Assembly (NCBI GenBank): GCA_018669975.1
Contig: JABHSK010000007.1
Coordinates: forward strand, 128,390-192,389
DNA: 64,000 bases
Source: Candidatus Parcubacteria bacterium
GTDB taxonomy: Bacteria; Patescibacteriota; Patescibacteriia; UBA1558; GWA2-36-10
Direction of reading: 5' to 3'
A program made the translations under genes and the position numbers. Under the pieces are notes generated by a model that did no database searches, was not told the DNA's origin, and saw only the letters and a program-made list of their open reading frames with translations. Numbering within the stretch: position 1 is the first letter of the stretch; every line of letters starts with the position of its first letter. Shown here piece after piece: positions 5,039 to 37,672 of the stretch.

Positions 5039-5062
5039 TTTTTAGTTTAGAAATATTTTGAT

Positions 5063-5446
5063 ATGAAAAAAGTAAAGTCAAAAAAGAAAGTAAAGAAGAT
5101 AGTAAAAAAGGGTCAAGCTCATATTCAAGCTACCTATAATAATACTATTGTGACGATCACTGATCCACAGGGAAATGTGTTGGCTTGGTCATCTGCCGGA
5201 ATTAACGGTTTTAAAGGACCTAAAAAGGCTACTCCGTATGCAGCTGGAATTATCGTCAGGAATGTTGCTGAGAAAGTCAAAGATTTTAATATGTCAGAAG
5301 TCGATGTCTTTGTAAAAGGTGTCGGTGCTGGTCGTGAAGCTTCAATTAGAGCCTTGCATGGTAATGGATTGACTGTTAACTCAATTCAAGATCAAACACC
5401 AATACCGCACAACGGTTGTCGACCAAAGAAAACAAGAAGAGTTTAA
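5063..5446 (+). CDS. rpsK: 30S ribosomal protein S11
   Basis: [20 protein letters not shown] signature. Confidence 0.9.
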
Positions 5447-5459
5447 TACTAATTGAAAT

Positions 5460-6074
5460 ATGGGAAGAAATCTAAAACCACGACATAAAGCTAGCCGAAG
5501 ATTTGGAGAGAATGTTGCTGATACAGCTAAGTCTCCTTTGGCTAAAAAGCCATATCCACCAGGAATGCATGGTCCTAAAAAGACTTTTGCTAAAGTTTCT
5601 GAATATGGTCGTCAGTTAAAGGAAAAACAAAAAGCCAAGGCTATTTATGGTCTTTTGGAAAAACAGTTTCGTCTTACTTTTTCTAAAGCATCAAAGATGA
5701 CTGGTGAAATTAGTAGTAATTTATTATTACTTTTAGAAACTCGTTTAGATAACGTAATTTTTCGCTCAGGTTTAGCTCCTACTAGACGTTTAGCTAGACA
5801 ATTGGTAACGCATGCCCATTTTACTGTTGATGGAGTTAAAACAAACATTCCTTCATATAGGGTAAAACCAGGACAAGTTATTAAGCTTAAAGAAAACAAG
5901 CTTAAAAAAGCTTATTGGGCTAAGATTTTAGAAAAGATCGAAGACATTGAATCAGCTGGTTGGTTGACTCTAGATAAAAAAGAAATGAGTATTACTATTA
6001 GTAGCTTACCAAACAAGGAAGAGTTACCACAAAACATTGAAACTCATTTGATTATTGATTTTTATTCAAGATAA
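5460..6074 (+). CDS. rpsD: 30S ribosomal protein S4
   Basis: MGRNLKPRHKASRRFGENV N-terminus and S4 domain. Confidence 0.9.
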   Translation: MGRNLKPRHKASRRFGENVADTAKSPLAKKPYPPGMHGPKKTFAKVSEYGRQLKEKQKAKAIYGLLEKQFRLTFSKASKMTGEISSNLLLLLETRLDNVIFRSGLAPTRRLARQLVTHAHFTVDGVKTNIPSYRVKPGQVIKLKENKLKKAYWAKILEKIEDIESAGWLTLDKKEMSITISSLPNKEELPQNIETHLIIDFYSR

Positions 6075-15964: not shown

Positions 15965-16396
15965 CTAGGAGGTGGAACTTGTTGTCCGTTGTTTGCGTCT
16001 AGCAAAGAGCTTGCGGAGCAGCCAAATGACCACGATCAGTACCAAGACGAATTTGGCTAGTGCCCAGAGATCCCAGATGAATCGCATGCTAAAGAGATAG
16101 CCGAAGAATGATTTGATTTTGGGGATAGGATCCACAAAGCCATGGTTCTTCTGGTAGACTTCATCTGGAGTCATAAAGGTTAGTGAGTCAACGGGCACTT
16201 CGCGCGTATCTTCGAAGTAGCGGAATTGTCCGTTGTCGCTCTGCGTCCAACGCAGCACTTTCCAGTATTTGGATCCTTGAGCGTTAGTTCGTTCGATGCA
16301 GGGGACTTCACGATAAGTAATGATCTTGGCCATACAGCTGGAGCTGATGGCCAGCAGCGTTAGGACTGCGACCAGTATCAGGGCCAGCTTTTTCAT
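15965..16396 (-). CDS. Hypothetical exported/membrane-anchored protein (signal peptide, about 80-aa domain, C-terminal TM, basic tail). GC-rich cassette gene.
   Basis: 143-aa ORF, N-terminal MKKLALILVAVLTLLAISSSC. About 50% GC against an about 33% backbone. Second gene of a two-gene unit. Confidence 0.55.
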   Translation of the reverse strand: MKKLALILVAVLTLLAISSSCMAKIITYREVPCIERTNAQGSKYWKVLRWTQSDNGQFRYFEDTREVPVDSLTFMTPDEVYQKNHGFVDPIPKIKSFFGYLFSMRFIWDLWALAKFVLVLIVVIWLLRKLFARRKQRTTSSTS

Positions 16397-19921: not shown

Positions 19922-21169
19922 ATGTTGGACATAAAATATATCAGGGACAATCAAAATGAGGTAGAGCAAGCTCTACTCAAACGTATAGACAAGAAGAATT
20001 TGGACCTGAATAAAATTTTAAAATTAGACGATCAGCGTCGAGAAATTATAGTTAAAGTAGATGAGTTAAAAGCTGAACGTAATAAATTTTCTAAAACTAA
20101 ACCTGATGCAAAAACCATCAAGGCTATGAAAAAGCTTGGTGAAGATATTAAAGTTTTAGATAGAGATCTGAATTCTGCGGAGGCTACTTTAAATGAAGTT
20201 TTGGCAGCGTTACCAAATATCCCAGCTGATGATGTAGTAGCTGGTGGCAAAGAAAATAATAAAATTATCAAGACTTTTGGTGAGCAAACAAAGTTTGATT
20301 TTGAGCCAAAAAATCATGTTGATTTAGCTACTGATTTAGGGTTAATTGATTATGAGCGAGCAGCTAAGATGTCTGGTGCTGGTTTTTGGACTTATGTTGG
20401 TGATGGTGCATTATTAGAGTGGGCATTGCTCAATTATTTTATTGATTTTCATCGTAGTCATCCAGAGTATAGATTCATGATTCCGCCTTATATGTTGAAT
20501 GAAAATTCTGCTTATATTTCTGGTCATTTGCCAAAATTTAAAGATGATTTATTTTGGGCAGAAAAAGATAAATTATGCTTTAATGCTACTTCTGAGATGA
20601 TGTTAGGCAATTATCATGCTGGTGAAATGATTAACCGGAAAGATTTACCATTGAAGTATTATGCTTTTTCAACTTGCTTCCGTCGTGAAGCTGGAGCCTA
20701 TCGAACAGAGGAGAGGGGAATGATTCGCGGACATCAGTTTAATAAGATTGAGATGTTTCAATTTACTTTGCCAGAAGAATCTTGGGCAGCTTTTGATGAG
20801 TTACTAGACTATGGTGAGAAGTTGGTAGAAGGACTAGGCCTTCATTATAATACAGTTCAGCTAGCAGCTGGTGATTGTAGTGCTGCTATGGCCAAGACAA
20901 TTGATTTGGAGGTTTGGATACCAAGCATGAAAGGGTATAAGGAGGTGTCTAGTGTATCCAATGCCTTAGACTATCAAGCTAGGCGTGGTAATATCCGTTT
21001 TAAAGATGTGGATAATAAGAATAAGTTTTTACATACTCTGAATGCATCAGGCTTAGCTACTAGTAGAGTATTTCCAGCTATTTTAGAACAGAATCAGCAA
21101 GCGGATGGTTCAGTGTTGATACCAAAAGTTTTGCAGAAGTATATGGGTAAAAAAGTATTAAAGAAATAA
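19922..21169 (+). CDS. serS: Seryl-tRNA synthetase
   Basis: N-terminal coiled coil MLDIKYIRDN and class II core. Confidence 0.9.
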   Translation: MLDIKYIRDNQNEVEQALLKRIDKKNLDLNKILKLDDQRREIIVKVDELKAERNKFSKTKPDAKTIKAMKKLGEDIKVLDRDLNSAEATLNEVLAALPNIPADDVVAGGKENNKIIKTFGEQTKFDFEPKNHVDLATDLGLIDYERAAKMSGAGFWTYVGDGALLEWALLNYFIDFHRSHPEYRFMIPPYMLNENSAYISGHLPKFKDDLFWAEKDKLCFNATSEMMLGNYHAGEMINRKDLPLKYYAFSTCFRREAGAYRTEERGMIRGHQFNKIEMFQFTLPEESWAAFDELLDYGEKLVEGLGLHYNTVQLAAGDCSAAMAKTIDLEVWIPSMKGYKEVSSVSNALDYQARRGNIRFKDVDNKNKFLHTLNASGLATSRVFPAILEQNQQADGSVLIPKVLQKYMGKKVLKK

Positions 21170-22282
21170 ATGCCGTTGACCTGGATAGAAATAAATAAAA
21201 AGAATCTTGAACATAATTTGAAGCAATTCAATAAAGTTGCTAATCATTCAGAGCTTTGGCCAGTGGTCAAAAGCAATGCTTATGGTCACGGATTGGTAGA
21301 GGTTATTAAAATTTTAGATAAAGACAAGAATGCTAACGGTTTTATGGTTGTTAATTTAGGAGAAGCTTTACAGGCAGCTAAATTAACTAAAAAGCCAATT
21401 ATGATTTTGAGTTATTTTTCTATGGATGAGGATTTACTCAAAAAAGTAATCCACAAAAAAATATCTTTGCCAGTTTATGATTTAGATATGGTTGACTATC
21501 TAGAACATCTAGGTAAGAAGCTAAAGGCTAAATTTTCTATCAATATAAAAATAGATTGTGGTACTTCAAGATTAGGCTTTAAAGCAGAAGAGGCAGAGGA
21601 CGCCATAGAATACATAACCAAGAAAAAGAATTTACGTTTGCATAGTATTTTTACTCATTATGCTGAATCAGAGGCAGAAGATAAGAGTTTTACTTTGCAG
21701 CAGTTTAGTGCTTTTAATGAAATAGCCGGCAAGTATTTTGATATCAAAATGCATTCCGCTTGTTCAGCCTCAGCTATTAGTATGCCGGAAACTCAACAAG
21801 ATCTTGTGCGAGTTGGGATTTCTCTCTATGGTTTGTGGCCTAGCCAGGCAACACGTCAACGTGGAGAAAAAGTAGGTATTAAGTTGCATCCGGTCATGTC
21901 TTTAAAAACCAAGATTGTGCAGATTAAAGATTTGAAAAAAGGAGAGAGCGTTGGTTATAATAGGACTTATAGCTGCACCAAGGCTTGCAAGCTAGCAGTT
22001 TTGCCTATTGGCTACAATGAGGGTTATAGTCGTTTGTTTTCTAATAAAGCTAAAGTACTCATCAAGGGTAAGAGATATTTAGTTCGTGGAAATATTTGTA
22101 TGAATCTGACCATGGTAGAATTACCAGCTAATACAAACATCAAAGTAGGGGAGCAGGTAACATTGCTAGGTCATGACGGACGTGATGATATTAGTGCTGA
22201 AGAGTTAGCGGAGTTATCACAAACTATTAATTACGAAGTTGTTACTAAAATAAAAAAAGATTTACCTAGAGTAATCGTTTGA
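21170..22282 (+). CDS. alr: Alanine racemase
   Basis: PLP motif VVKSNAYGHG. Confidence 0.85.
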   Translation: MPLTWIEINKKNLEHNLKQFNKVANHSELWPVVKSNAYGHGLVEVIKILDKDKNANGFMVVNLGEALQAAKLTKKPIMILSYFSMDEDLLKKVIHKKISLPVYDLDMVDYLEHLGKKLKAKFSINIKIDCGTSRLGFKAEEAEDAIEYITKKKNLRLHSIFTHYAESEAEDKSFTLQQFSAFNEIAGKYFDIKMHSACSASAISMPETQQDLVRVGISLYGLWPSQATRQRGEKVGIKLHPVMSLKTKIVQIKDLKKGESVGYNRTYSCTKACKLAVLPIGYNEGYSRLFSNKAKVLIKGKRYLVRGNICMNLTMVELPANTNIKVGEQVTLLGHDGRDDISAEELAELSQTINYEVVTKIKKDLPRVIV

Positions 22283-22333: not shown

Positions 22334-23164
22334 ATGATGTCTAGAATAAGATCAAATCAAGTTTGGAAAAAACACCTGCCGCAAAAGCCACGCCGGGTAC
22401 AGCGGGGGTACTATACTGACAAAAAGAACAAGCAAAGTAAAACAGTTGTCAGGATTATTTGGGTTATTTTTATAATTTTATCTTTACAAAGTATTTTTCA
22501 TATAAAATATTTTAAAGTTGATAATATTAATTTAACAGGCAATAAAGATATTGTCCTGGAAGATATTCAAACTAGCTTGCAAGACGAGCTTACAGTCACT
22601 AGGTTTTTATTGTTTAAAAATGATAATTACTGGTTGCTTAAAACTGAGCCTATGGAAGAGATTTTGTTGGCCAATTATAACTTAGATGAGGTAAGAGTCA
22701 CCAAAAAATTTCCAGATACCTTAGATGTGAGTGTAAAAGAAAAGATTTCTCATTTTATTTGGCAGAAAGATGATGCTTTATACCTGTTAGATGCTAAGGG
22801 GTCCTTAAATCGTCAAATACGAGCTTTAGATGATAAATACCTTATAATACAGGACTTTCGTGCACGTCGTCCTGAGGGCGAGATAGTTTTTAACTCTGAG
22901 GAGATGAATATTATCAATAAACTATATTTAGCCTGGCAGGATATGATAGCCGATAAAGCTAAACTAGTTAAAATTAGGCTAGATGACAACTGGGGTTTAT
23001 TAGAACTGCACACTGATATAGGTTTTTATGTAAAGGTGGATGCCAACGAAGACTTAAAGGAACAAGTAAACAATTTGAACCAAGTATTAACAGCTGGAAA
23101 TATTACAGGAGTAGATGTAGATTATATAGATATACGTTTTGGGGATAAGGTGTATTTTAAGTAA
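22334..23164 (+). CDS. FtsQ/DivIB-like cell-division protein (POTRA)
   Basis: Basic N-terminus, single TM, then KKFPDTLDVSVKEKISHFIWQ, typical of the FtsQ POTRA region. Confidence 0.55.
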   Translation: MMSRIRSNQVWKKHLPQKPRRVQRGYYTDKKNKQSKTVVRIIWVIFIILSLQSIFHIKYFKVDNINLTGNKDIVLEDIQTSLQDELTVTRFLLFKNDNYWLLKTEPMEEILLANYNLDEVRVTKKFPDTLDVSVKEKISHFIWQKDDALYLLDAKGSLNRQIRALDDKYLIIQDFRARRPEGEIVFNSEEMNIINKLYLAWQDMIADKAKLVKIRLDDNWGLLELHTDIGFYVKVDANEDLKEQVNNLNQVLTAGNITGVDVDYIDIRFGDKVYFK

Positions 23165-23274
23165 AAATACTAAATAGGGTTAAAGTGGCCTTATTTATAT
23201 TTATAATACTAATTGAGTATAATAACTCTTACACTCAATTTGACAATATATAAACTAGGTTTTATAATATAAAC

Positions 23275-24231
23275 ATGGTAAATACTAAAAAAAGACAGAC
23301 CCTCCCCCTTCTTGATGAGTTTTTGGAAAACATCCAATCTAATAACTACTCTGCTGAGACGGTCTATAACTACGAAAGAGATCTAAATACTTTTGAAAAT
23401 TTTTTGACAGACGATATTAAAACACCGTTTAGCAAAATCACTAAGAGATCAATCATCAAGTTTAAGGCCTACCTCTCCTCTACTTCCAGGCAGACAGCCT
23501 CCAATGAGTCTGGTCAGAGTCAACTATCAAGTTATAGTATCAACCGCATCCTATCAGCTCTGCGTTCTTATTTAAGGTTTTTAGTAGAGATTGATCAAAA
23601 AGTACCTGTGCCTGCTGATGCTGTTAAACTTCTTAAAACAGAGAAAAAGTATGGACAGGTACCAGAGATGTCTGAATTAATAAAATTGATTGAGGCGCCA
23701 ACCCAGTTTGAGAATGATCCGACTATCAAGTTGCGTAATCGAGCTATGCTGGAGACTTTGTTCGCTACTGGTATGCGTATTTCTGAATTATTATCACTGA
23801 AACGTGAGCAACTAGATAAAACTGGTCGTATCTATGTTATGGGTAAGGGCAAAAAACAACGTTTTGTCTATCTAACACCTCGGGCTATTAAACATCTTAA
23901 GGATTATTTATCAGCTCGTCATGATGATACTCCCTACTTATTTATCCCTTATCGTGGTCGCAATAATCAGCAAAAAAATAAGAAAATATCGACCAATTAT
24001 TTACAATATAAGATAAAGCGCTATCGGGAGCTTTTATCTATTAATATACCGATATCAGCCCATTCTATTCGGCATAGCTTTGCTACTTATTTAGCAGAAA
24101 ATGGTGCTAACCCGGCTGCTATTCAAATATTACTAGGACATGAGTCGCTGGATACTACGACGCGTTATGTGCACGCTTCAGACCGTTATGCTGAAAGGAT
24201 GCACACTAAGTTTCATCCTCTTAAAAAATAA
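23275..24231 (+). CDS. Tyrosine recombinase, XerC/XerD family
   Basis: Catalytic R (ATGMRISEL), HSIRHSFAT (H-x-x-R), TTTRYVH (Tyr). Abuts a GC-rich island. Confidence 0.8.
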   Translation: MVNTKKRQTLPLLDEFLENIQSNNYSAETVYNYERDLNTFENFLTDDIKTPFSKITKRSIIKFKAYLSSTSRQTASNESGQSQLSSYSINRILSALRSYLRFLVEIDQKVPVPADAVKLLKTEKKYGQVPEMSELIKLIEAPTQFENDPTIKLRNRAMLETLFATGMRISELLSLKREQLDKTGRIYVMGKGKKQRFVYLTPRAIKHLKDYLSARHDDTPYLFIPYRGRNNQQKNKKISTNYLQYKIKRYRELLSINIPISAHSIRHSFATYLAENGANPAAIQILLGHESLDTTTRYVHASDRYAERMHTKFHPLKK

Positions 24232-24245
24232 TATAAAAAAAGAAA

Positions 24246-24271
24246 AACCCTGTACCAGCTGGTACAGGGTT
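24246..24271. terminator. Bidirectional terminator between the xer-like gene and minus-strand gene 24281..25087
   Basis: aaccctgtacc-agct-ggtacagggtt perfect palindrome flanked by A-runs and T-runs. Confidence 0.75.
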
Positions 24272-24280
24272 GATATTTAT

Positions 24281-25087
24281 TTAGGCAATACTGACATTGG
24301 CATTGTCGGTAAAAATCTTACTTTGGGCTTCGGGGCTACTAGGCCAGTTTCGAATAACTTCGTCGATCAGGCTCATGGCAGTCAGGAAGTCACAGTGGAC
24401 AGATTGGATACCGAAGCGGTAGCCTTTCTTGTCACCGTCTTCACCAATGAAAGTGATAGACTCTTCTAGTCCCTCACGTGCACCTTCGACTTTGACCAAA
24501 GTAAACACGATTCTGCCGGCGGAGACCAGGCTACGCATTGCGACATTGCCGAATTGGCCACTCATACCACACTTGTCCGAAGCATCGATGACTTTCAGTA
24601 GTCCGTTTTCATAGACCTGGCGTAGGAAACAATCCCAGGCCTTACTCAGGACAGTCGTCTCGGCGAAGAAATATGATTCAATATTGTGGCGGACATTGGC
24701 GCCCATGCTTCGATATTCCATATCACGCTCAATGGCACTCTCTATTAGGCGTGCCAAGGTGCTGATAGTTAGGGCTTTTTCGACAGCCTGAAATTGGACA
24801 TCCAGCAGATCGACGACTTCATCGTTACCGCGTTCGATTGCTTCCAGGTAGTCTTGGCGGCACTTGGCCACTACTGAGTGGTCATCGTGTCGGAAGAGTT
24901 CCCAGGCATCAGCTAGGATGCGAGGTAGATAGTGAGAGATGCCACAGTGTTTAAAAGTGGTTTCGTCGGCTACTCTTTCGTCGAGATACCAGCGTAGGAA
25001 AAACACAAGATGTTTTTCACCGCGGGTCTGGAAATCTCCAGCATGCAGATAGCCTGATAGGGCTCGAGTGAGTTCGTTTTTTTGCAA
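24281..25087 (-). CDS. Hypothetical 268-aa cytoplasmic protein, GC-rich orphan with a TTG start preceded by GGAGG
   Basis: Long ORF at about 50% GC with its own promoter, SD and terminator. No family recognised by eye. Confidence 0.55.
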   Translation of the reverse strand: MQKNELTRALSGYLHAGDFQTRGEKHLVFFLRWYLDERVADETTFKHCGISHYLPRILADAWELFRHDDHSVVAKCRQDYLEAIERGNDEVVDLLDVQFQAVEKALTISTLARLIESAIERDMEYRSMGANVRHNIESYFFAETTVLSKAWDCFLRQVYENGLLKVIDASDKCGMSGQFGNVAMRSLVSAGRIVFTLVKVEGAREGLEESITFIGEDGDKKGYRFGIQSVHCDFLTAMSLIDEVIRNWPSSPEAQSKIFTDNANVSIA

Positions 25088-25147
25088 GGTATTACCTCCA
25101 GTTAAAGTACATAGTTGAAGCCAAATATATAGCTCGAATGACAGTTA

Positions 25148-25215
25148 TTTTTACTATGAATATCATTTTTTGTCAATAATTGACATGTTTTGTTGGTATA
25201 TGTTAAGATACATTT
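25148..25215. promoter_or_regulatory. Divergent promoter region built on palindrome TGTCAAT-A-ATTGACA (two overlapping -35 TTGACA hexamers, one per strand)
   Basis: 25171..25185 seen directly. Plus-strand TTGACA-N17-TTAAGA(T). Minus-strand TTGACA-N17-TAAAAA(T) leads to the TTG-start gene. Confidence 0.5.
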
Positions 25216-25224
25216 AGCTTTTTT

Positions 25225-25480
25225 AGAACCTTAATTATACAACAACATGATGGCTGTAGAAGGGAAGGCCAGTATCTTGGAGACGCTCGGAATGGGTACC
25301 CAAAAGGAAGGCCTACGTGGCCCAATTAACCCTAAGGGATTCCGAGCTGTTTTAGGCAAATGTGCCTACCAACTATGTCCTAGATACCCCCTGATACAGC
25401 CACCTATTACCCCCTACCGAACCATTGAGATTTTTCCGCATAACGCTAAAAAGCCTCAATCTCGGTAGGGGGCTTTTTTT
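25225..25480 (+). ncRNA. Candidate structured ncRNA (about 250 nt) ending in a long GC-rich terminator hairpin. Weak resemblance to 23S rRNA domain III segments.
   Basis: GC-rich, stop-interrupted except for a weak 73-aa ORF with no SD. Internal pairings ggaaggcc...ggaaggcc. Terminator cccctaccga...tcggtagggg followed by ttttttt. Confidence 0.35.
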
Positions 25481-25723
25481 ATTAACATTTGACAAGATTT
25501 TGTTTATATATTAAGTTGAAAGTAGAAGGTATATAGAAAACTGAATAAAAGTTGTAAATCAATACAAATTACAAATCGCCAAAAACAAAAATATCTGGTA
25601 CTTTGACAATCCAGATTGATGATAGATAGCGTTTTAGCCTGTATTGATTTTTTGTTTCCTGTCACCCCACCACACCCAAATTTCCGACATGGTGTCGGAA
25701 TACAACCAGAAAGGTGGTTCATC

Positions 25724-26149
25724 ATGAAGAACGGGAGGAATAACCATAAGACACACAGACGTGTGAGGTATTACTTGTATTGGCTGTGTTTCGCTTGGAT
25801 GGTCGCTCAAATGGCGCTCATCCTCTGGAAATTCTTTGGATTTCCGCCCCCTATCATCATTCCGCCGAGTTTCCCGGTGTATTATTTTGTAGTCCTAGTC
25901 GTCTATTCGGTCGTCAGGGCGAGCGCTCGTTGGGCGCACAAGGTATTACCGCGAAAGAAGGGTGGAACCTTTGTGTATCTGTGGGGCATTTTTGCACTAC
26001 TGATTCACATCATTGCTGCGTTTGGTAACGGGCGCTTCGAAATTCCCAGAGTCACGTTTGACAACTTGTTGTTTGTCTCCATTGTTTACGTGGCATCTAG
26101 GATTGAAAAGCGTTTATTTCTAAATATACGCAATGGCTCTAAACATTAA
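25724..26149 (+). CDS. Hypothetical small membrane protein (141 aa from the SD-preceded Met; 3-4 TM, Pro-rich loop)
   Basis: GAAAGGTGG SD 6 nt before the ATG at 25724, in frame with the longer ORF-track call. Perfect 8-bp hairpin ttccgaca-tgg-tgtcggaa immediately upstream of the SD. Confidence 0.5.
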   Translation: MKNGRNNHKTHRRVRYYLYWLCFAWMVAQMALILWKFFGFPPPIIIPPSFPVYYFVVLVVYSVVRASARWAHKVLPRKKGGTFVYLWGIFALLIHIIAAFGNGRFEIPRVTFDNLLFVSIVYVASRIEKRLFLNIRNGSKH

Positions 26150-26428
26150 CTTGAAGGAGGAAGACTGCTATGTCCCCTTTTAGCAACTGAGCCATCTATA
26201 GATTTTTATTTCCTAGGTGGCTCGTTTTTTTATAAATAAAAAAGGAGAGTTATCGCACTCTCCCGCACATCCGTGTGACTGGTGTTGTAGTCAAGATGTA
26301 AGCGCCCTATTTTGCCTTAGGGGCAGGCTCCGGTGACATCGTCTACTATGTTGCCTCTTTTTATATATGGGCACCAGGGAGAAATGACGTATGTCTCAGA
26401 AATAATTAAGGTTCTACGGATACAAAAA

Positions 26429-26451
26429 ATATCCTATCAAGAATAGGATAT
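26429..26451 (-). terminator. Terminator of 26480..28366
   Basis: atatcctat-caaga-ataggatat with a minus-strand T-run. Confidence 0.6.
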
Positions 26452-26479
26452 ATTGTCAAGACCTAGTTGATATTTGGAT

Positions 26480-28366
26480 TTATAAGCTTATTTTAGCGTT
26501 TAATATTTGATTTTGATACGCCTCCTCTACTTCAGACCAATCAAGGTATTTTTGTAGAAAATTTTGTTTGATTTCGTCGGTCATTAACTGTGGCTGGCTA
26601 GCAATGGAAGTCATTGGTAAAAGATAAAGAGTATAAGTTTTATCTGAGGTATTATAAGATACGCCGACACCCATTTCTTCTTGGGTATCTGGAGAGAAAT
26701 ACTGATCAAAGATAAAGTTGCCCAGTGAATAAAATATTGGTTTATCTTTATATATTTCCATTCCTTGAACTACATGTGGATGATGACCAATAATCATATC
26801 AGCTCCAGCATCAATAAATTGGTGAGCAAGATTTTGTTGTATAGAATTAAAATTGTGCTCATATTCAACGCCCCAGTGTACGTTGACTATCACTAAATCA
26901 TTTTTAGTGTCTGCATTTTTAATTATACTTAAAGCTTCATCTACATCAAACATATTATAAACCATACTCAATCCAATCATAGCTACTTTCTGATCAGCCA
27001 CTTGAATATCTCTCTGACTACATTCGGCAATTTCAGAGTCTGGACAACCAGCAAAAGCTATATCTAAATCAGCTAGGTTTTTATATGTTTCAGCTAAACC
27101 AGCGTGTCCTTGATCGGTAACATGATTATTAGCAGTTGTAAAAAAATTAAAGTAATAATCTTTGTTTAGTGTTTTGATTAATTTTGGGTTAAATGAAAAA
27201 TCATAAGGCACTATTGGTAGATAGTGTTGACCATCTTTAGTGACGGCGCCTTCTAAATTAGCTGCTACTATATCTGAACCCATGAAAAATCTTTTTTCTT
27301 CAGTGGCTAAATTAGCAAATAAATGAGCTAGCCCATACTCCTTTATCTTGGTGCCCACGTTTCTGTCCAACATCAAATCACCGAAGAATAAAAAGTTTAT
27401 AATATTTTCTTGGCTAGGCTTACCTTTTGAAAAATAATACAGCTGATGACTAGTGGTTGGTTCATCTGGCATGCCTATTAGGTCTCCAGAATTGGTATGA
27501 AAAACGAGTTGACTCTGTTGAGAGTTTATAGTTTCTAGATATTTTAATAAGGTATAAATAGAGGCTGGCGAGTCAATTTCTAAATCATGTATACGGTCAA
27601 AATCAAAACTCTCTATCACTCCTCTGCTTTGCTGATCATGAAAATCAGATACTAAACTAGTTTGAAAATGTGAAAAATCTACACTAGCCAGTACTAGAGT
27701 TTTTTCTTTATCCATAGTGCTTAGTAGACCAGCCAATTGATTCAATTCTTCCAGGGGTGTTTGATATTTTATTATTATAGGTACTATTTTGGCTTGTGGG
27801 AGACTTTTTTTAATAAAAGGCACTAAACCAGATATAGAGTGTTCTCTGGCAAAGGGATTCTCATCAATATTAAAATAATTATTAAACTGGTCAATAGTAT
27901 TAGTGTCTGGTAAAAGTTCACCGTATGGCGTATTCCATTTTGCTCGGGATAAAAGTATATCTTTATTGCCAGCCTGGTAATGATTTGGTCCAATTAGGAT
28001 GACTGTATCATAGACATCTTCTAGACCGCTGAAATAAGCAGCTATTTTTTCTTTCACCATTAAGTGGTGTGGAATAATACCACCATAAATCTTATTAGCT
28101 GGAGTTGGGATTTGCCCTTGCGCAGCTTGGTAGGCTCCTTGATAGACATCGAGTTTAATGTGATAAGATCGGTGTGTATCTAAGGTAGTCGCGCTACTTG
28201 ATTGTTTTAAGATGCTTATTTCTTGTATAGAGCTTAGTAAGTTGGTATTTTCCTTTTTTAGATATATATAAATTAGTCCTACTTGTGAAATGAGTAGGAC
28301 TAATAGAATAATAAATATTGTTTTTTTGCTTTTGTCGGACATTATTTTTTTAACGGCGGGCTCCAC
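26480..28366 (-). CDS. Membrane-anchored fusion protein: Memo1/AmmeMemoRadiSam-B-like domain plus CapA-family (PGA-capsule / metallophosphatase-like) domain
   Basis: N-terminal TM. GGIIPHHLM...LIGPNHY (Memo-like). C-terminal ...VNVHWGVEYEH...GADMIIGHHPHVVQG...YSLGNF (CapA). Confidence 0.6.
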   Translation of the reverse strand: MEPAVKKIMSDKSKKTIFIILLVLLISQVGLIYIYLKKENTNLLSSIQEISILKQSSSATTLDTHRSYHIKLDVYQGAYQAAQGQIPTPANKIYGGIIPHHLMVKEKIAAYFSGLEDVYDTVILIGPNHYQAGNKDILLSRAKWNTPYGELLPDTNTIDQFNNYFNIDENPFAREHSISGLVPFIKKSLPQAKIVPIIIKYQTPLEELNQLAGLLSTMDKEKTLVLASVDFSHFQTSLVSDFHDQQSRGVIESFDFDRIHDLEIDSPASIYTLLKYLETINSQQSQLVFHTNSGDLIGMPDEPTTSHQLYYFSKGKPSQENIINFLFFGDLMLDRNVGTKIKEYGLAHLFANLATEEKRFFMGSDIVAANLEGAVTKDGQHYLPIVPYDFSFNPKLIKTLNKDYYFNFFTTANNHVTDQGHAGLAETYKNLADLDIAFAGCPDSEIAECSQRDIQVADQKVAMIGLSMVYNMFDVDEALSIIKNADTKNDLVIVNVHWGVEYEHNFNSIQQNLAHQFIDAGADMIIGHHPHVVQGMEIYKDKPIFYSLGNFIFDQYFSPDTQEEMGVGVSYNTSDKTYTLYLLPMTSIASQPQLMTDEIKQNFLQKYLDWSEVEEAYQNQILNAKISL

Positions 28367-30185
28367 CCCACTCTACTACAGTAAAACCATTTCTTTCAGG
28401 TGTAGTTAGTGTTTGTGGTTTGACTTTGACAAGTGTATCTAAACCCTGATAATCCATAAATACACGTATGATGGTATCAGGTTGTGGGTTAATTTCTAAG
28501 GGGGCCAGTCTATCAAATTTAGCTTGAGGTACAAAAGTGATGAAGTAGTATGGCTTTTCTTTCATTAATGGTTCCCAGTATTCAATGAATTCATTATACT
28601 CCTTGGCTATTAAACCCTGCTGTTCTAATTTACTAATTAGAAAACTTTTTATTTCGTTTTGGGCTACAACAAAACCTTCTTGTGGGCGATCGTAGTCTAA
28701 ACCATGTCCTTCCCAAAATAAATATGGATAGGCAGTTTTGTCATCGTAATTATAAAGAATTCCACTTGGTGTTGCTTTAACGAACCAGCCATTTTTATAG
28801 TCGGGCTCGGTAATTGTTAAACCTTTGTTAGGATGTACTTTTACACTAACATCGGTATCTGTTTCTGGATAAAGATATATAACTGGTTTAGCCATTTCTA
28901 CGGCTTGCATAAAGTCTGCATTTTTCATTACCAATAAATCACCAAAAGGGTCTTGCCAAAATAATAATGGTTTGGCATCCAAAAAGTCTTCAAAGGATAA
29001 CTCTTCTTGGCCCTCTGGCACGTATTGTCTTGCATGCATCATCTCTAGCATGCTTTTTTCACTCCCAGGAGTTTCCTTAATAGATTGGTCGGCTAGTTCA
29101 TAGATAGCGTCTCCACTAGGAGTTTGACCAACTTGTTTTAATTGCGACATGTCGTCTATATAATAAGCATAGTCATAACAACCCTCTCCCCAGCCCATAT
29201 TGTATAATCTTTTATAAGAATACTCATTTGTGTTTTGACTACCGTCAGTCCAAGTAAAATTAAGTATTTCTGGATTAACGTGTATTCTAGTGTTTTCTAC
29301 AGACTCACCTTTAAAGTCTAGATCTAAATAATAGTTAGTTACACTGCCATCATCAGCTGTGCTGAAAAAGCAGTTGTTATATTTATAAATATCACCACCA
29401 TCATAGGTAAAAAGTTTTTCAGGGTTATTATAGGTATTAGCCATTCTAAAGCCTTCCTCGCCAATTTTTTTCAATTGTAAATCAGAGTTTGGTACATTAA
29501 TGTTTACTGGTGTCTCTACATTAGTAATTGTTATTTCATTATTGATACTAGTAAATAATTTTTCATGTGCGCTATGTGGACTGGCATCATCTGAATGTTT
29601 TGTCAGTAGTATGGTGTTGCGATCAGCATCTTTAATTACTCTATATAGGTTGTCGCGAAAAGCTATGCCATCAGGTCTGACCGATACCATGTATAGAGTA
29701 TTATCTTGGTAGGGTCCTTGCTCTACAGTACCAATTTTATAGACTTTTACTCTATCCATGAGAGATTCATAGGTGCCAGAAAAATCTTCTTCAGCCTCCA
29801 AAATAGGTTTAAGTTCAAGGCCGTTAAATACATCATAATGATTTACAATGGTAGGCCATTCGTTCCAACTCATAAATATTTCGCCTTCAGTTAAGTCTAT
29901 ATTAACATCGTCATCTTGATTGTTATCTATTATCTCACCATCTACTGTTGTATTATTATCTAGAATATCATCATCAGTATTAGTAATATTAACTACTGGT
30001 GGTGTGAATGGTGCGGGTTTTGAGTCTTCTTTTTTATTAAACAAAAGGTATAGGGTTAGTGCATTACCAACAACTAGTACTACAACTAGTATACTGAGGA
30101 CAATTTTTAAGCCACCTGATTTTGGTTGAGGTGGTGTTGGATTTTCTGTTGTTGTCTCTTGTTGATTGGCGTAATGTATTCCCAT
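28350..30185 (-). CDS. Hypothetical large surface protein with an N-terminal TM anchor
   Basis: 611 aa. Pro/Thr-rich N-terminus, a single TM, then Asp/Asn-rich and aromatic-rich extracellular region. Confidence 0.5.
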   Translation of the reverse strand: MGIHYANQQETTTENPTPPQPKSGGLKIVLSILVVVLVVGNALTLYLLFNKKEDSKPAPFTPPVVNITNTDDDILDNNTTVDGEIIDNNQDDDVNIDLTEGEIFMSWNEWPTIVNHYDVFNGLELKPILEAEEDFSGTYESLMDRVKVYKIGTVEQGPYQDNTLYMVSVRPDGIAFRDNLYRVIKDADRNTILLTKHSDDASPHSAHEKLFTSINNEITITNVETPVNINVPNSDLQLKKIGEEGFRMANTYNNPEKLFTYDGGDIYKYNNCFFSTADDGSVTNYYLDLDFKGESVENTRIHVNPEILNFTWTDGSQNTNEYSYKRLYNMGWGEGCYDYAYYIDDMSQLKQVGQTPSGDAIYELADQSIKETPGSEKSMLEMMHARQYVPEGQEELSFEDFLDAKPLLFWQDPFGDLLVMKNADFMQAVEMAKPVIYLYPETDTDVSVKVHPNKGLTITEPDYKNGWFVKATPSGILYNYDDKTAYPYLFWEGHGLDYDRPQEGFVVAQNEIKSFLISKLEQQGLIAKEYNEFIEYWEPLMKEKPYYFITFVPQAKFDRLAPLEINPQPDTIIRVFMDYQGLDTLVKVKPQTLTTPERNGFTVVEWGGARR

Positions 30186-30238
30186 GGTAAGAATTTTAAA
30201 AGTTAAAAAACGGATTTACCATCCGTTATTATTTTATA

Positions 30239-31507
30239 TTAAGGTAAATAATTTAAAGCATTAACTGGTATACCATTTACGCGTAACTCGAAATGAAGAT
30301 GTGGGCCAGTAGAAAATGGACCAGCTCCTCGAGTACCTGGCATACCACCACTGTAACCAATAATTTGTCCTTTACTGACAAACTGATCTTCAGATATGCT
30401 GATTCTATTAACATGACCATAAACAGTAGACATTTTATTAGCATGCACTACCATAAGATAGCTATAGCCATATTGTCCACCATCTTTAGCTCGAGCTACG
30501 TAACCAGATTCAGCAGCTCTAATTGGGCTACCTTGCGGGGAAGCTATGTCAATGGCTGTATGTTCAAAAATATAACGGTAAGGATAATCAGGGTCATGGA
30601 AATATGCAGTTACTATACGAGAAGAAATTGGCCACATTATACCATCACTTTCTATGGCCTCTAACTCTAATTGACGATTGAGTTTTTCTCGAGCAACTTT
30701 TTCTAAGTAGACAATATCATTATTGATTTGTTCTTGCTCTTCCCTGACCTGTTGTAATAGTTCTTGAAATTTTGATTCTTGACCAGCAGTAATTGATAAA
30801 AGATTGTATTTGCTTGTTTTTTGACCCTCTAAAGAGCCTACTTTATTATCTAAAACACCCTTGAGGGTATCTAACTCAATTTTTTCATCTTCTAGTGAGT
30901 TTTTGTCGGAATGTAGGGCCATTTTAACTGTATTAAGCTCCTCTACTCCATCAACTAGTGTGTCTTGCATGTCTTCTAGTCTTTCTAGTTCTGCCATAAA
31001 GTCACTGAAACTATCATTGAGAATTAATACTTCTAACAAGCTACTTTTTTGTTGTTCACGATGTAGGGTTCTAATTATTTCAGCAATAATTTCTTTTTCC
31101 TCGTCTATTTCTTTTTCCTTAGCCTGAATTTTTAATTCAGTATTTTCCATTTTTAGATTAAGTGTTTCAACTTCCAGGTTTATCTTTTCAATTTCTAGAT
31201 TAATTTTAGCCATACTTTCATTGAGAGTGCTAACTTGATTGGAAAGACTATTTAACTCTCTTTGTTTGGCTGATATATTTTTTTTGTAAACATCTATTTG
31301 ACGTTTGAGATCTTGAATTTCTGATCTTTTTTCGTTGATATCTTGATTGATTTGCCATCTTTCGACATCGTCTATATTATCCATGGTAAACTCAACTGCC
31401 AAAATATTTCCAGCGTAAAAAAACACACTTAAAAAAGTGAGGCTTATGGCTACAAATATTAGTTTAGGAGATTTTATTTTTGAAAATTTAAGCATGGAAT
31501 TGAGCAT
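30239..31507 (-). CDS. M23 family metallopeptidase with an N-terminal coiled coil (EnvC/NlpD-like murein hydrolase or activator)
   Basis: HTAIDIA...GPHLHFELRVNG M23 motifs; long heptad-rich N-terminal half. Confidence 0.8.
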   Translation of the reverse strand: MLNSMLKFSKIKSPKLIFVAISLTFLSVFFYAGNILAVEFTMDNIDDVERWQINQDINEKRSEIQDLKRQIDVYKKNISAKQRELNSLSNQVSTLNESMAKINLEIEKINLEVETLNLKMENTELKIQAKEKEIDEEKEIIAEIIRTLHREQQKSSLLEVLILNDSFSDFMAELERLEDMQDTLVDGVEELNTVKMALHSDKNSLEDEKIELDTLKGVLDNKVGSLEGQKTSKYNLLSITAGQESKFQELLQQVREEQEQINNDIVYLEKVAREKLNRQLELEAIESDGIMWPISSRIVTAYFHDPDYPYRYIFEHTAIDIASPQGSPIRAAESGYVARAKDGGQYGYSYLMVVHANKMSTVYGHVNRISISEDQFVSKGQIIGYSGGMPGTRGAGPFSTGPHLHFELRVNGIPVNALNYLP

Positions 31508-31557
31508 AATAAGTATATGTTATTATACCATAAAATGTATAATGTGGCAAAATATTT

Positions 31558-32988
31558 TTATTTTAATTTGTTTAAAGCCAGCTTAATTCTATTTAAGCTT
31601 TCTTCTTTACCTAATACTTCTAAAATTTCAGAAGGAGATGGACTTTTTTCTTGTCCAGATAAAGCTACTCGGACTGGCCAAAATATATCGCCAGGTGTAA
31701 GACCATGTTTGCCAGCAATATCTTCCAAGGTTTGATTGAGGTTTTCTAAAGTCCAATCTTTGTCATTTAACTTAGCTAAACTGCCCAAGGATAGGTTTAA
31801 GCCTTGGTCAGTTTTTTCACTGTCACTTTTTTTAAAGACTAACATATCGGCTGTGTATGCGGGTAATTTAAATAGAAAAGCGCTAAGCTCAGATATCTCT
31901 GATAAATGATTGATTCGACTACCAAATAATTTTAAAGCATCTTCAGCTCCATCTTCGTGACCCTGTAGATAGCCCTGGCTTTGTTTGATTAATTGTTGAT
32001 AACGTTCCCCAGCTTCAGAAATTATTCGACGGATATATTCAGCATTAAACCAGTTTAATTTGTTAACATCAAAAACAGCGCCTGCTTTGTTTATTTTTTC
32101 TAGAGAAAATTGTTCAATCAGTTGGTTGATCAAAAATAGTTCTTGATCAGTGCCCGGATTCCAGCCTAGCAGTGCTACATAGTTTAATAATGCTTCAGGT
32201 AAATATCCTTTTTTTATAAAATCTTCTACAGCTACATCACCCTGACGTTTTGATAATTTACTTTTATCAGGATTGAGTAGTAGGGGTAGATGTACAAATT
32301 CTGGCAATGGATAACCAAGAGCTTGGTATAGTAAAATGTGTTTAGGTAATGATGGTAACCACTCCTCACCCCTAATCACATGGGAGATGCCCATGGTGTA
32401 GTCATCAACAATATTGGCTAGATGATAAGTGGGATAGTTGTCTGTTTTTATCAATACAAAATCATCTAAATCCTCTGTTTTTACGGATATTTTTCCATAA
32501 ACAATATCTTTGGCTTGAACTATTTGATCTTTAGGTATTTTGAAACGAACAACGTGTTTATCACCAACAGATTTTAATCTTTGTGCTACCTCGTCTTTAC
32601 TTAAATGTCGGCAATGGCCATCATATTTTGGCACTTGCTTGTTAGCTTGTTGCTCTTGGCGTAATCTGTCTAGTCGCTCACTGCTACAAAAACAAGGATA
32701 AGCTAAGCCTTTACTGATTAGTTTGTTGGCTGCTTTTTCATAAAGAGCCAGTCTGTTTGATTGGTGCTCGATTTTTCCGTCAGGTCTAAGACCGAGGCTT
32801 TCTAGGGTTTCTAATAAAGCATCAGCTGCACCTTCGACTAGTCTTTGTTGGTCGGTATCCTCAATACGCAAAATAAACTCGCCATTATTTTGTTTGGCAA
32901 ACAAATAATTAAATAAAGCTGTGCGTAGGCTGCCGATATGTAGGTAGCCAGTGGGACTGGGAGCAAATCTAGTTCTTATTTTTTTCAT
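31558..32988 (-). CDS. gltX: Glutamyl-tRNA synthetase
   Basis: RFAPSPTGYLHIGSLRTALFNY (HIGH) and KLSKR (KMSKS). Confidence 0.9.
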   Translation of the reverse strand: MKKIRTRFAPSPTGYLHIGSLRTALFNYLFAKQNNGEFILRIEDTDQQRLVEGAADALLETLESLGLRPDGKIEHQSNRLALYEKAANKLISKGLAYPCFCSSERLDRLRQEQQANKQVPKYDGHCRHLSKDEVAQRLKSVGDKHVVRFKIPKDQIVQAKDIVYGKISVKTEDLDDFVLIKTDNYPTYHLANIVDDYTMGISHVIRGEEWLPSLPKHILLYQALGYPLPEFVHLPLLLNPDKSKLSKRQGDVAVEDFIKKGYLPEALLNYVALLGWNPGTDQELFLINQLIEQFSLEKINKAGAVFDVNKLNWFNAEYIRRIISEAGERYQQLIKQSQGYLQGHEDGAEDALKLFGSRINHLSEISELSAFLFKLPAYTADMLVFKKSDSEKTDQGLNLSLGSLAKLNDKDWTLENLNQTLEDIAGKHGLTPGDIFWPVRVALSGQEKSPSPSEILEVLGKEESLNRIKLALNKLK

Positions 32989-32997
32989 ATGTTTGAA

Positions 32998-33747
32998 TTA
33001 TACTCTTTTTTTATAAAGATATCTATCTTTTATTACTAACCAAGGAAATATAAATATAGCTCGGTGGATTCTTTTTAAACGCCAGGGTTGTCTCAAAAAT
33101 CTCCACAACCATTCTAAGCCGAAACTACGCATGACTTTTGGTGCTCTTTTAATGCGTCCAGAAATGAAATCAAAAGTACCGCCCACACCTACACCAATTT
33201 TGACAGATGGTATTTTATGCATATTTTCCCAAATCCAAATATCCTGTTGTGGAGCACCGAAACCAGTTAAAATTATATGTGGTGCAAATATACGAGCCTT
33301 TTCCAAGGCTGATTTTTCATCGGCTACCTGAAAATCAAGTTCCGGGTATTTTTCTTTTATTGATATAAAAAAGTCATTTGGTTTACTTAAACCTTTGCTA
33401 TATAGGCAAAATAGAACTTTGTGATTGGAGTTGATAGCTTGATTTAAAAGTATTTCAGTCAATTGAACACCAGTCATCCTTTGTTCCAATGATATATCGT
33501 GACCTATCAGCTGCATTAGTTTGATAATACCTGAACCATCGATAGTGGATAAGCTAGCTTCATTGATGATGTTTTTGAATTTTTTATTTTTTTGGGCAGA
33601 GACTATAAACTCTGGATTAACTGTAACGATTTGGTGTTGGTTATCTGAATTTAAAAAAGTATGCAGCGTATCTTTTACTACATGCTCGGGCGCAGTTTGG
33701 ATTTTTACTCCTAGAAGTTTATATGTTTTCATAATTCTAAATATCAA
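32998..33747 (-). CDS. WecB/TagA/CpsF family glycosyltransferase (GT26)
   Basis: C-terminal ...GVGVGGTFDFISGRIKRAP...WLWRFLRQPWR. Confidence 0.75.
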   Translation of the reverse strand: MIFRIMKTYKLLGVKIQTAPEHVVKDTLHTFLNSDNQHQIVTVNPEFIVSAQKNKKFKNIINEASLSTIDGSGIIKLMQLIGHDISLEQRMTGVQLTEILLNQAINSNHKVLFCLYSKGLSKPNDFFISIKEKYPELDFQVADEKSALEKARIFAPHIILTGFGAPQQDIWIWENMHKIPSVKIGVGVGGTFDFISGRIKRAPKVMRSFGLEWLWRFLRQPWRLKRIHRAIFIFPWLVIKDRYLYKKRV

Positions 33748-34285
33748 AAGTCTGCAGTACGGTGTATTCGGGTCCTTTTTTGCTTAGGACACTTTCTTGC
33801 AATTCAAAATTAACAACAGTAAATATTTTTTTTATTTTCCAATCACTAAAACTTTTAAATTCTTCAATGGGAGCTGTTGTTTTGATTCTAGCCAAAGTAA
33901 TGTGTGGATTAAATTTTCGTACTTCTTTATGCGCTAATCCAGCATCAAATAAAGCTTGCTCTATTGCATCGTATAATTGTTGTAATTCTGGGCTATCTAC
34001 AAAATCTAATCGTAAAATACGTGGTTTATTAGGATCTACAATAGAGGTTTTATTGATGTGTAATTCAATTGGATCAATGTTTTCTATGGTAGACAGAGCT
34101 TCTATGCATGCAGGGATTTTGTCGATGGGAACATCTCCTAAAAATTTTAGGGTCAGATGTAATATTTCAGGATTAACTGGCCTGAGCATTTCCCAGGGTA
34201 AATTTAATGCTTGAAATTTCTTTTGGATGTCCTTGCTTATTCCAGGATCTAGCGAGACACTTATAAACAATCTTATATTTTCCAT
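33737..34285 (-). CDS. thpR: RNA 2',3'-cyclic phosphodiesterase (2H family, LigT/ThpR)
   Basis: Two H-x-T-x motifs: HLTLKFLG and HITLARI. Confidence 0.75.
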   Translation of the reverse strand: MENIRLFISVSLDPGISKDIQKKFQALNLPWEMLRPVNPEILHLTLKFLGDVPIDKIPACIEALSTIENIDPIELHINKTSIVDPNKPRILRLDFVDSPELQQLYDAIEQALFDAGLAHKEVRKFNPHITLARIKTTAPIEEFKSFSDWKIKKIFTVVNFELQESVLSKKGPEYTVLQTFDI

Positions 34286-36826: not shown

Positions 36827-37672
36827 ATGCGTCGTATTTTTTTGCATGATAACCTGGACATCGATGCTGTTGCTAGTGCTTGGGCAGCAGAACGTTTTAT
36901 CCCTGGTTTCAAGGATGCTACCTTTGCTTTTCGTCCGGCTGACTATGATGGCCACGAAATGGATGAGGGTGATATCGCTGTCGATATGACAATTGGTATC
37001 AAGGGTAAGCTTGACGATGATGGCACGCAGCACTCCTCTTTCGCTAGCATCATTGCCCAGTATGCCCCGCTTGAGGATCAGGCTGCTTTGCATCCCCTGG
37101 TCACCTTCATCGATGCGCAGGACAGTTATGGTTCTGCTATCAAGCACATGGTGCCCGATATCGATGATGATGCTCTGAATATTCTTTCCACTGTCACAGT
37201 TAGCTCGGTTCTCCGGGCTTTGCAGAATACCAACCAGAGAAACGATCGCTCCGTGCTTTATAAGATGCTGATGATTTTTGATGGCCTGTTTGGCTGTGGT
37301 AAGGCTCGGCAGGAAGCTGAGAAAGAGGCCGATCAGGCTGAGCTTTTGGCCGATGGTCAGGTAGCTATCGTCGACAATTCTCGGCGTTATGCCACCAACA
37401 GTATTCTTTTCAACCGCGGTGTGCGTGCGATCATCTACATTGATGATTACAATCTGGGAGTTGTTCGTAGCAGCGAAGAAGCTTTCCGGGCTGATGATCC
37501 CCGTATTTGTGCGGTAGTTGAGGCTGCTGGTGAGTTCGATGAGTGGTTTGCCCACTCTGCTGGTTTCCTGTTCTGCCGTGGTAGTCGTAAGTCTCGACAG
37601 ACTTCTCCTTCTCAGGTCAATCCTCGTGATTTGGCCCAGGCTTTGGTAGATGTTGTTTCTACTGCTGCCTAA
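36827..37672 (+). CDS. Hypothetical acidic 281-aa protein, GC-rich cassette. N-terminus weakly resembles DHH phosphoesterase motif I.
   Basis: AAGGAG SD 8 nt before the ATG; terminator follows. FLHDNLDIDAVASAWAA resembles H-x-N-P-D-x-D-A-x-G-S, but no DHH triad is seen. Confidence 0.5.
   Translation: MRRIFLHDNLDIDAVASAWAAERFIPGFKDATFAFRPADYDGHEMDEGDIAVDMTIGIKGKLDDDGTQHSSFASIIAQYAPLEDQAALHPLVTFIDAQDSYGSAIKHMVPDIDDDALNILSTVTVSSVLRALQNTNQRNDRSVLYKMLMIFDGLFGCGKARQEAEKEADQAELLADGQVAIVDNSRRYATNSILFNRGVRAIIYIDDYNLGVVRSSEEAFRADDPRICAVVEAAGEFDEWFAHSAGFLFCRGSRKSRQTSPSQVNPRDLAQALVDVVSTAA

Follow-up and report, generated by a model that had tools for sequence, protein, structure and literature searches.

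We analyzed a 64-kb stretch of a Parcubacteria contig (Candidate Phyla Radiation, CPR), hereafter the window, in which a gene encoding an Xer-type tyrosine recombinase (xer) is followed by a 2.2-kb block that had been predicted to be foreign and integrated or mobilized by Xer. Our analysis points instead to two unrelated things lying side by side, in that this locus probably consists of a housekeeping xer-dif module and, beside it, a zone of gain and loss of whole accessory units. Under this explanation, xer would encode the single Xer recombinase of the cell, encoded together with a 28-bp dif-like site upstream of its promoter in an arrangement of the xerS-difSL type, and its job would be the resolution of chromosome dimers at cell division; the gene adjoins ftsQ. 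Downstream of xer, between convergent housekeeping blocks, the 2.2-kb zone would hold four self-contained transcription units, each with its own predicted sigma-70-type promoter and intrinsic terminator, i.e., a 268-amino acid (aa) soluble protein of an unnamed family widespread in the CPR, a divergent small RNA (sRNA) of ~260 nt, a 141-aa membrane protein, and a minus-strand sRNA of ~185 nt (Table 1).

A conserved Xer recombinase with an adjoining dif-like site

The recombinase has the domains and residues that characterize Xer proteins, i.e., matches to PF00589 (Phage_integrase, E=1e-35) and PF02899 (SAM-like N-terminal domain, E=8.5e-13) and the catalytic motifs HSIR at residue 263, ATGMRISE and TRYVH, which we read by eye in the translation. 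As had been predicted, the gene ends at a bidirectional terminator, a hairpin with T-runs on both strands. The NCBIfam models scoring best against the protein are XerC (201.7 bits, cut-off 335), XerD (189.3 bits, cut-off 329.6) and XerA (182.2 bits, cut-off 220), with the XerS model far lower (94.6 bits, cut-off 267); all of these scores lie under their cut-offs, and an equivalog-level assignment to XerC, XerD, XerA or XerS is not reached. No second tyrosine recombinase is present within the window.

The loci used for comparison were collected by identity of the 268-aa protein (69% for L004, L005 and L006, 79% for L007, and 60% for L008, which is part of L021) or, for L022 and L023, through homologues of the membrane protein, and these last two are the more distant genomes. 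The gene order SerRS-Alr-FtsQ-Xer is kept in L004, L021, L022 and L023, which are all the related contigs that reach far enough. Amino acid identity between the window and L021 is 92% for Xer, 84% for FtsQ, 83% for seryl-tRNA synthetase (SerRS), 81% for alanine racemase (Alr), 69% for the PGA_cap protein and 60% for the 268-aa protein. The recombinase is therefore conserved and syntenic, with a dif-like site elsewhere than at the edges of the zone, which is largely the situation that the original prediction had itself named as speaking against mobility, and we consider it most likely to be the cell's own housekeeping Xer.

Aligning the spacer between ftsQ and xer across the relatives exposed a dif-like site that ends one base before the xer -35 box. 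Its two arms, ATTGAGTATAA and TTACACTCAAT, are inverted copies at 10 of 11 positions, and its 6-bp centre, TAACTC, is non-palindromic. The site occurs as a single copy in the window when up to 3 mismatches are allowed, with 0 copies expected by chance, and it is the sole inverted repeat of the form 11-N6-8-11 with dif-type inner ends (ATAA..TTAC), the others being terminator hairpins. It thus shows the sequence-level properties of dif, i.e., two inverted arms of ~11 bp, a centre of 6-8 bp and presence in single copy. The site is identical in L021 and differs by one mismatch in L022; in L004, both arms carry a matching T-to-C change at arm position 2. The dif sites of E. coli and B. subtilis have this 11-6-11 layout (PMC5357621), and a recombinase gene that directly adjoins its site has been described for xerS/difSL (PMC5357621). 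Because of this shared layout and this adjacency, and given the pattern, position and conservation of the site, we read xer and the 28-bp site as a probable xer-dif module. This would be a candidate for such a module in a Parcubacteria lineage and, if true, the site would mark the replication terminus.

The palindrome immediately downstream of xer was also considered as a dif candidate and rejected. Its stem carries compensatory changes (CCCTGTACC, CCCCGTACC, CCCCGCACC) and its loop varies in length across L004, L007 and L021; since the stem covaries while the loop length changes, we class this hairpin as a terminator and not as a recombination site.

Among known systems, the arrangement resembles XerS/difSL of lactococci and streptococci, where a single Xer-type gene also lies immediately beside an inverted-repeat site (PMC5357621), and more loosely XerH/difH of epsilon-proteobacteria and XerA/dif of archaea. 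The likeness to XerS/difSL has limits, in that difSL is 31 bp long with an 11-bp centre and unequal arms, whereas the site described here has the near-identical arms of classical dif, and XerS comprises 356 aa, whereas the protein described here comprises 318 aa and scores best to XerC, XerD and XerA. Our search of the literature found no paper joining dif, Xer and the CPR.

Independently varying transcription units downstream of xer

The zone lies where two convergent blocks of genes meet, all genes being on the plus strand over 288-24231 and on the minus strand over 26480-34285. Comparison with the relatives demonstrated that its content is variable, as separate units and not as the one block originally proposed. 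The membrane gene is absent from L004 and L021, with ~180-190 nt in place of window 25257-26225; both loci have the 268-aa gene and the promoter pair, as well as an sRNA and the minus-strand sRNA. In L022, the xer stop codon runs straight into the membrane-gene promoter (L022 4440-5235 aligns with window 25474-26245 at 71% identity), and window 24232-25473, which holds the terminator, the 268-aa gene, the promoter pair and the sRNA, is missing. In L023, ~1 kb of GC-rich non-coding DNA with RNA-like units is followed by the membrane gene, and both the 268-aa gene and the PGA_cap gene are absent. Therefore, the block 24232-25473 is present in the window, L004, L007 and L021 and missing in the outgroups L022 and L023, and the membrane unit (~25480-26229) occurs in the window and in both outgroups but not in L004 or L021, i.e., at least two blocks vary independently, each of them a complete promoter-to-terminator unit. 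In four relatives, the 268-aa gene and xer lie in synteny, with 60-79% identity of the 268-aa protein.

The zones of the outgroups have features of their own. In L022, a tRNA gene (5522-5596, minus strand, 63.7 bits) lies in the variable stretch between the membrane gene and the PGA_cap gene; the 64-kb window has no tRNA or tmRNA detectable with ARAGORN. In L023, two promoter-to-terminator units at 4975-6000 are closed by long GC-rich helices (GGGCGGGAG...CTCCCGCCC and GCTGGGGG...CCCCCAGC). A search of L004, L021, L022 and L023 against Rfam returned the L022 tRNA only, with no match for the L023 units at E<=0.1.

The junctions between present and missing units fall in the T-runs of adjacent terminators (for example, ...GGGGGCTTTTTTT/ATTAAC... 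paired with ...GGCTCGTTTTTTT/ATAAATAAAAAAGGAG, the slash marking the junction). Over 23100-26700, the direct and inverted repeats contain no att-like pair, only A/T-runs or repeats at chance level. The original prediction had suggested looking for att or dif-like sites at the edges of the block, and none is present at ~24.24 or 26.45 kb; over 24.2-26.5 kb as a whole, which includes the junctions at 25.47 and 26.23 kb, we found no full dif-like site (<=3 mismatches) and no half-site (<=1 mismatch), the sole dif-like site being the one upstream of xer. We infer that units would be added and removed not by Xer or other site-specific exchange but by ordinary illegitimate or short-homology recombination, i.e., slippage or deletion between terminator tails. 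In the simplest history, with L022 and L023 as the more distant genomes, the ancestor of the group of the window, L004, L007 and L021 would have gained the block of the 268-aa gene and sRNA, and L004 and L021 would later have lost the membrane unit. The zone does not yet amount to a new kind of system.

The composition of the zone is atypical, though less so than first described. The block had been put at about 50% GC, which is an overstatement, as 24240-26470 has 43.7% GC against 35.6% for the whole window; what stands is that three gene bodies are raised, i.e., the 268-aa gene (49.2%), the plus-strand RNA (46%) and the membrane gene (45.8%), with spacers of 27-33%. By GC content at third codon positions (GC3), the membrane gene (0.55) and the 268-aa gene (0.52) rank second and third from the top among 61 open reading frames (ORFs) of the window (median 0.275).

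The 268-aa protein belongs to a large family without annotation

The TTG-start ORF of 268 codons that had been predicted on the minus strand was found, and a GGAGGT Shine-Dalgarno (SD) sequence lies 8 nt upstream of it. GC-rich patches in AT-rich genomes often give spurious ORFs. This ORF is coding, since all four homologues, at 60-79% identity, retain the TTG start and the full-length frame and since substitutions by codon position follow the order 3 > 1 > 2 in 6 of 6 pairwise comparisons (e.g., 63, 35 and 112 at positions 1, 2 and 3).

It had been called an orphan, which it is not. A word-indexed search with the protein returned four clusters only; an exhaustive HMMER search with a four-sequence profile returned 263 clusters at E<=1e-3, of which 143 also pass E<=1e-10, and most of these are full-length proteins of 250-280 aa; with a 49-sequence profile, a word-indexed search contributed a single addition, P0078. 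The members located to date are from metagenome-assembled genomes of CPR/Patescibacteria (Uhrbacteria, Komeilibacteria, Saccharibacteria), with two exceptions that are on viral contigs of IMG/VR. The distant members have no conserved neighbor and no adjacent recombinase, and their neighbors are housekeeping genes (for ribosomal protein L10, tyrosyl-tRNA synthetase and BipA). In this the family resembles other uncharacterized families enriched in CPR/Patescibacteria, with full-length relatives of ~250-280 aa scattered among housekeeping genes; it is set apart by having no Pfam, NCBIfam or PDB counterpart and, as viral relatives, one model in the BFVD and the two IMG/VR contigs.

For the 268-aa protein, no match was found in Pfam, PADLOC or NCBIfam, and PHROGs gave a weak match only (E=0.18); the 49 family members likewise had no match in Pfam, and none was found among PDB sequence profiles. 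An AlphaFold2 (AF2) model from 4 sequences was poor, with a predicted local distance difference test score (pLDDT) of 68, and its Foldseek matches were noise. The model from 49 sequences reached a pLDDT of 95.9 and a predicted template modeling score (pTM) of 0.88, and shows a helical N-terminal half and a C-terminal half of a five-stranded sheet plus two helices. Foldseek with this model found no match in the PDB (best E=0.48) and one unnamed viral model in the BFVD (E=1.6e-5, TM 0.42-0.49). The positions conserved in the family are mostly G, F, W and P with a few arginines; W248 alone is invariant, and R77 occurs in 48 of the 49 sequences. Since few polar residues are conserved and none is invariant, we infer from the sequences a role in binding or as a scaffold rather than in catalysis. 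The family is well modeled, without annotation, fast-evolving and richer in GC than its host genomes.

This last property extends beyond the present locus, as in the distant CPR genomes L009, L012, L014 and L017 the GC content of the family gene exceeds that of its flanks by 5-13 points (e.g., 53% vs 41% in L017), and GC above the level of the host seems to characterize the family as such. One of the two viral members (L019, 8001-8756; 32% identity) comes from a phage-like contig of 345 kb, IMGVR_UViG_3300031669_000001, where its gene lies beside a phage-type helicase, an RNA-ligase-like gene and a tRNA nucleotidyltransferase gene, and the other is on a high-GC contig (L020). A tblastn search with the window protein and the jumbo-phage homologue against 50,697 phage records gave no match.

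A divergent promoter and predicted structured RNAs

Upstream of the 268-aa gene, the palindrome TGTCAATAATTGACA (25171-25185) is made of two back-to-back TTGACA -35 boxes, which bears out the divergent promoter originally proposed there. In L007 and L008 both boxes are retained, separated by 22 and 10 extra bases, respectively, i.e., the boxes are conserved and the palindrome is not.

A structured RNA of ~250 nt had also been predicted on the other side of this promoter, and our folding agrees. The plus-strand sRNA has a minimum free energy of -92.7 kcal/mol (z = -5.4, with 0 of 200 shuffles as stable) and ends in a long terminator. At the matching place in L021 there is a homologue in which 7 of 39 predicted pairs are compensatory and the closing helix is kept, a comparison of two sequences only. 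A 73-aa ORF across this sRNA was rejected; in L021 it meets a stop after 5 codons. L004 and L007 have, behind the equivalent promoter, a different RNA that is equally well folded (z = -6.1). A covariance model of the plus-strand sRNA run against all loci detected the window and L021 only, so that the L004/L007 RNA is not detectably related; read by eye, the two types have a similar 3′ tail, CCACC..UA..UACCCC.

The far edge of the block had been taken to be the terminator of a native gene. An AT-rich hairpin does follow the Memo/PGA_cap gene (26430-26455), and in the window genome it overlaps the promoter of an overlooked unit, the minus-strand sRNA. This unit is 78% identical in L004, has a core of ~45 nt that is nearly invariant across the window, L004 and L021, and has a fold z of -2.5. 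By eye, the equivalent promoter reads TTGACA-17-TAGAAT in L004 and TTGACA-17-TAGTAT in L021. A search of the whole window against Rfam at gathering thresholds gave no match for these RNAs, and relaxing to E<=10 on 24200-26500 gave terminator-driven chance matches only. Within one small intergenic zone there would be at least three unclassified structured sRNA genes, and to our knowledge few regulatory RNAs have been described in CPR genomes.

Near the 5′ ends of both predicted sRNAs of the window there is an identical 15-mer, TAGAACCTTAATTAT (25224-25238, plus strand; 26402-26416, minus strand). In L021, AGAACCUU is retained in the minus-strand RNA but not in the plus-strand RNA, and we dropped the 15-nt TAGAACCTTAATTAT as a common 5′ element of the sRNAs, since it is not conserved in the latter.

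The membrane protein unit

The 141-aa membrane protein and the perfect 8-bp hairpin just upstream of its SD were both found as predicted, and the protein has three predicted hydrophobic segments. The protein has 10 homologue clusters (59-76% identity), of which nine are full-length at 139-143 aa, and these fix the ATG start at 25724; its tail, SRIEKRLYLN, is conserved. It has no meaningful match in Pfam, PADLOC, NCBIfam or PHROGs. The GC3 of the gene is 0.51-0.65 in genomes of 33-41% GC. The promoter arrangement is kept in L022, directly after the xer stop codon, and a hairpin of different sequence (CTAGTCA..TGACTAG) occupies the matching place in the 5′ untranslated region (UTR) of L022.

The 5′ UTR is long, and at 25660-25720 it contains a C-rich run, CACCCCACCACACCC, upstream of the hairpin and an SD, AAAGGUGG, after it, with the same layout at ~4660-4716 in L022. 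This layout could be an SD-sequestering switch.

Weighing the explanation and its alternatives

Several observations weigh against a housekeeping xer-dif module beside an unrelated zone of gain and loss. The evidence for the module is of one kind, i.e., sequence pattern, position and conservation. Of the dif-like site, L023 has a recognizable left arm only, and the classical dif consensus, DBBBCSBATAATRTAYATTATGTHAANT, is not found in the window at <=3 mismatches, this consensus being a gamma-proteobacterial/Firmicute one. The curve of cumulative GC skew levels off at ~23 kb and has its maximum near 41 kb, which over a 64-kb window places the terminus only loosely. The related contigs are a handful, and mostly short. 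On the side of the zone, the 268-aa and membrane genes of every relative greatly exceed their genome in GC3, which fits a foreign origin or a selection pressure of some kind. Finally, an sRNA is present at the same position in every genome of the clade that has the 268-aa gene.

This last observation is what would be expected if the 268-aa protein and the divergent structured sRNA were one two-part module, e.g., an RNA-protein complex or a phage-conflict system, acquired whole by the ancestor of the clade. The two are one indel block relative to L022, the back-to-back promoter region is common to all four relatives, the protein evolves much faster than its neighbors (60% vs 81-92% identity), one viral protein matches it in structure, and a jumbo-phage contig encodes a homologue. 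Nevertheless, we regard such a module as unlikely, since the two RNA types are unconnected by the covariance model while the protein is unchanged in kind, and since distant members mostly have a same-strand gene immediately upstream, leaving no room for a divergent RNA, and share no conserved neighbor. Furthermore, L023 has structured RNA-like units at the zone without the protein, and PADLOC gives no match.

That the GC-rich block represents a mobile element that has integrated, or a module that the adjacent Xer inserts or excises in the manner of integrative mobile elements exploiting Xer (IMEX), such as CTXphi, VGJphi and TLCphi, we consider very improbable. The locus shares with IMEX an atypical, variably present block near an Xer gene and a dif-like site, and this much of the original proposal stands, i.e., the atypical composition and the variable content, but not the mechanism. 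The stretch missing in L022 is bounded exactly by the xer stop codon on one side and the membrane-gene promoter on the other, the corresponding zone of L022 has a tRNA gene, and the 268-aa family also occurs on the 345-kb phage-like contig. However, IMEX integrate into dif and so end up bounded by dif-like sites (PMC5357621), whereas the block described here lies beyond xer from the sole dif-like site, has no dif-like or att-like repeat at any junction, and consists of several independent units that vary separately, with no presence or absence as one unit. In addition, xer is a highly conserved, syntenic housekeeping gene, and the 268-aa gene is still beside it after ~40% protein divergence. 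There are no phage, transfer or replication genes, and PADLOC and PHROGs give no significant match for the 268-aa and membrane proteins (best E=0.18). The att repeats at both ends and the element-type genes that mark integrase-mediated islands and prophages are likewise not found at the locus, and the window has no tRNA. The mobile-element lead is not supported and can be closed.

We give equally little credence to a cassette-like array, in which hairpin-bounded units would be exchanged by Xer acting on folded terminator hairpins as in an integron, or to its milder variant, in which the 268-aa protein and the divergent sRNA would be a new RNA-protein module common to CPR bacteria and huge phages. 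Like an integron (IntI, attI and attC cassettes), the locus has an Xer-related recombinase beside hairpin-bounded, gene-sized units whose content varies between relatives. Unlike integron cassettes, the units here carry their own promoters and lie in both orientations, and their hairpins are ordinary terminators without a common sequence. Furthermore, the recombinase reaches 76.6 bits with the integron-integrase model, whose cut-off is 265, and its gene is a syntenic housekeeping gene, i.e., the locus does not classify as an integron. That the 50%-GC stretch encodes a large non-coding RNA, the 268-aa ORF being a mere by-product, as might be supposed given that a GC-rich patch in an AT-rich genome is often an RNA gene and that there are long ORFs on the opposite strand too, is refuted to the point of being virtually inconceivable by the third-position excess in 6 of 6 pairs, the kept frame and TTG start, the 263 protein clusters, the AF2 pLDDT of 96 and the lack of an Rfam match.

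Features of the locus and other observations in the window

The features of the locus and its neighboring genes are listed in Table 1.

Table 1. Positions of features at the xer locus, numbered from the first base of the window
Feature	Position	Strand	Basis or description
SerRS	19922-21169	+	Own sequence and Pfam families recorded for the L001 copy
Alr	21170-22282	+	Own sequence and Pfam families recorded for the L001 copy
FtsQ	22334-23164	+	Pfam
dif-like site, 28 bp, 11-6-11	23212-23239		ATTGAGTATAA-TAACTC-TTACACTCAAT; inverted repeat, adjoins xer -35 box
xer promoter	23240-23268	+	TTGACA-17-TATAAT; 12/12 consensus; kept in L004, L021 and L022
Xer-type tyrosine recombinase, 318 aa	23275-24231	+	Pfam PF00589 and PF02899
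Bidirectional intrinsic terminator between xer and the convergent 268-aa gene, serving both	24246-24271	both strands	Perfect 11-bp stem, T-runs on both strands
268-aa protein gene	24281-25087	-	TTG start; GGAGGT SD 8 nt upstream
Divergent promoter pair	25147-25209		Promoter scan; palindrome TGTCAATAATTGACA at 25171-25185
Plus-strand structured sRNA	25216-25480	+	~170-nt core closed by GGCUG/CAGCC; long terminator 25411-25472
Membrane-unit promoter	25489-25517	+	TTGACA-17-TAAGTT; read from sequence
5′ UTR hairpin, perfect 8 bp	25682-25700	+	Predicted fold; small SD-holding hairpin next to it
Small membrane protein, 141 aa	25724-26149	+	Three predicted hydrophobic (membrane-spanning) segments
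Membrane-unit intrinsic terminator	26189-26231	+	-16.5 kcal/mol, z = -4.2, T7 after
Minus-strand sRNA-like unit, ~185 nt	26236-26428	-	Own terminator 26243-26264 (terminator scan)
Minus-strand sRNA promoter	26431-26459	-	TTGACA-17-TAGGAT with TG; promoter scan
Memo/PGA_cap fusion protein	26480-28366	-	Pfam

Three further ORFs in the window are rich in GC3, i.e., 15965-16396 (minus strand, 0.61), which has no Pfam match, 36827-37672 (plus strand, 0.47), which has a weak match to ChrB_C, and 51701-52321 (plus strand, 0.44). Together with the 268-aa and membrane genes, these form a small class of GC-rich accessory genes.

Elsewhere in the window, 86 nt at 52915-53000 (plus strand) match positions 2128-2213 of the bacterial large subunit (LSU) rRNA in Rfam (54.9 bits, E=1.5e-13). 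This match lies within a stretch of ~2 kb without long ORFs (52.3-54.3 kb) and far from rRNA genes, and it could be either an rRNA-mimic regulatory element or an rRNA fragment.

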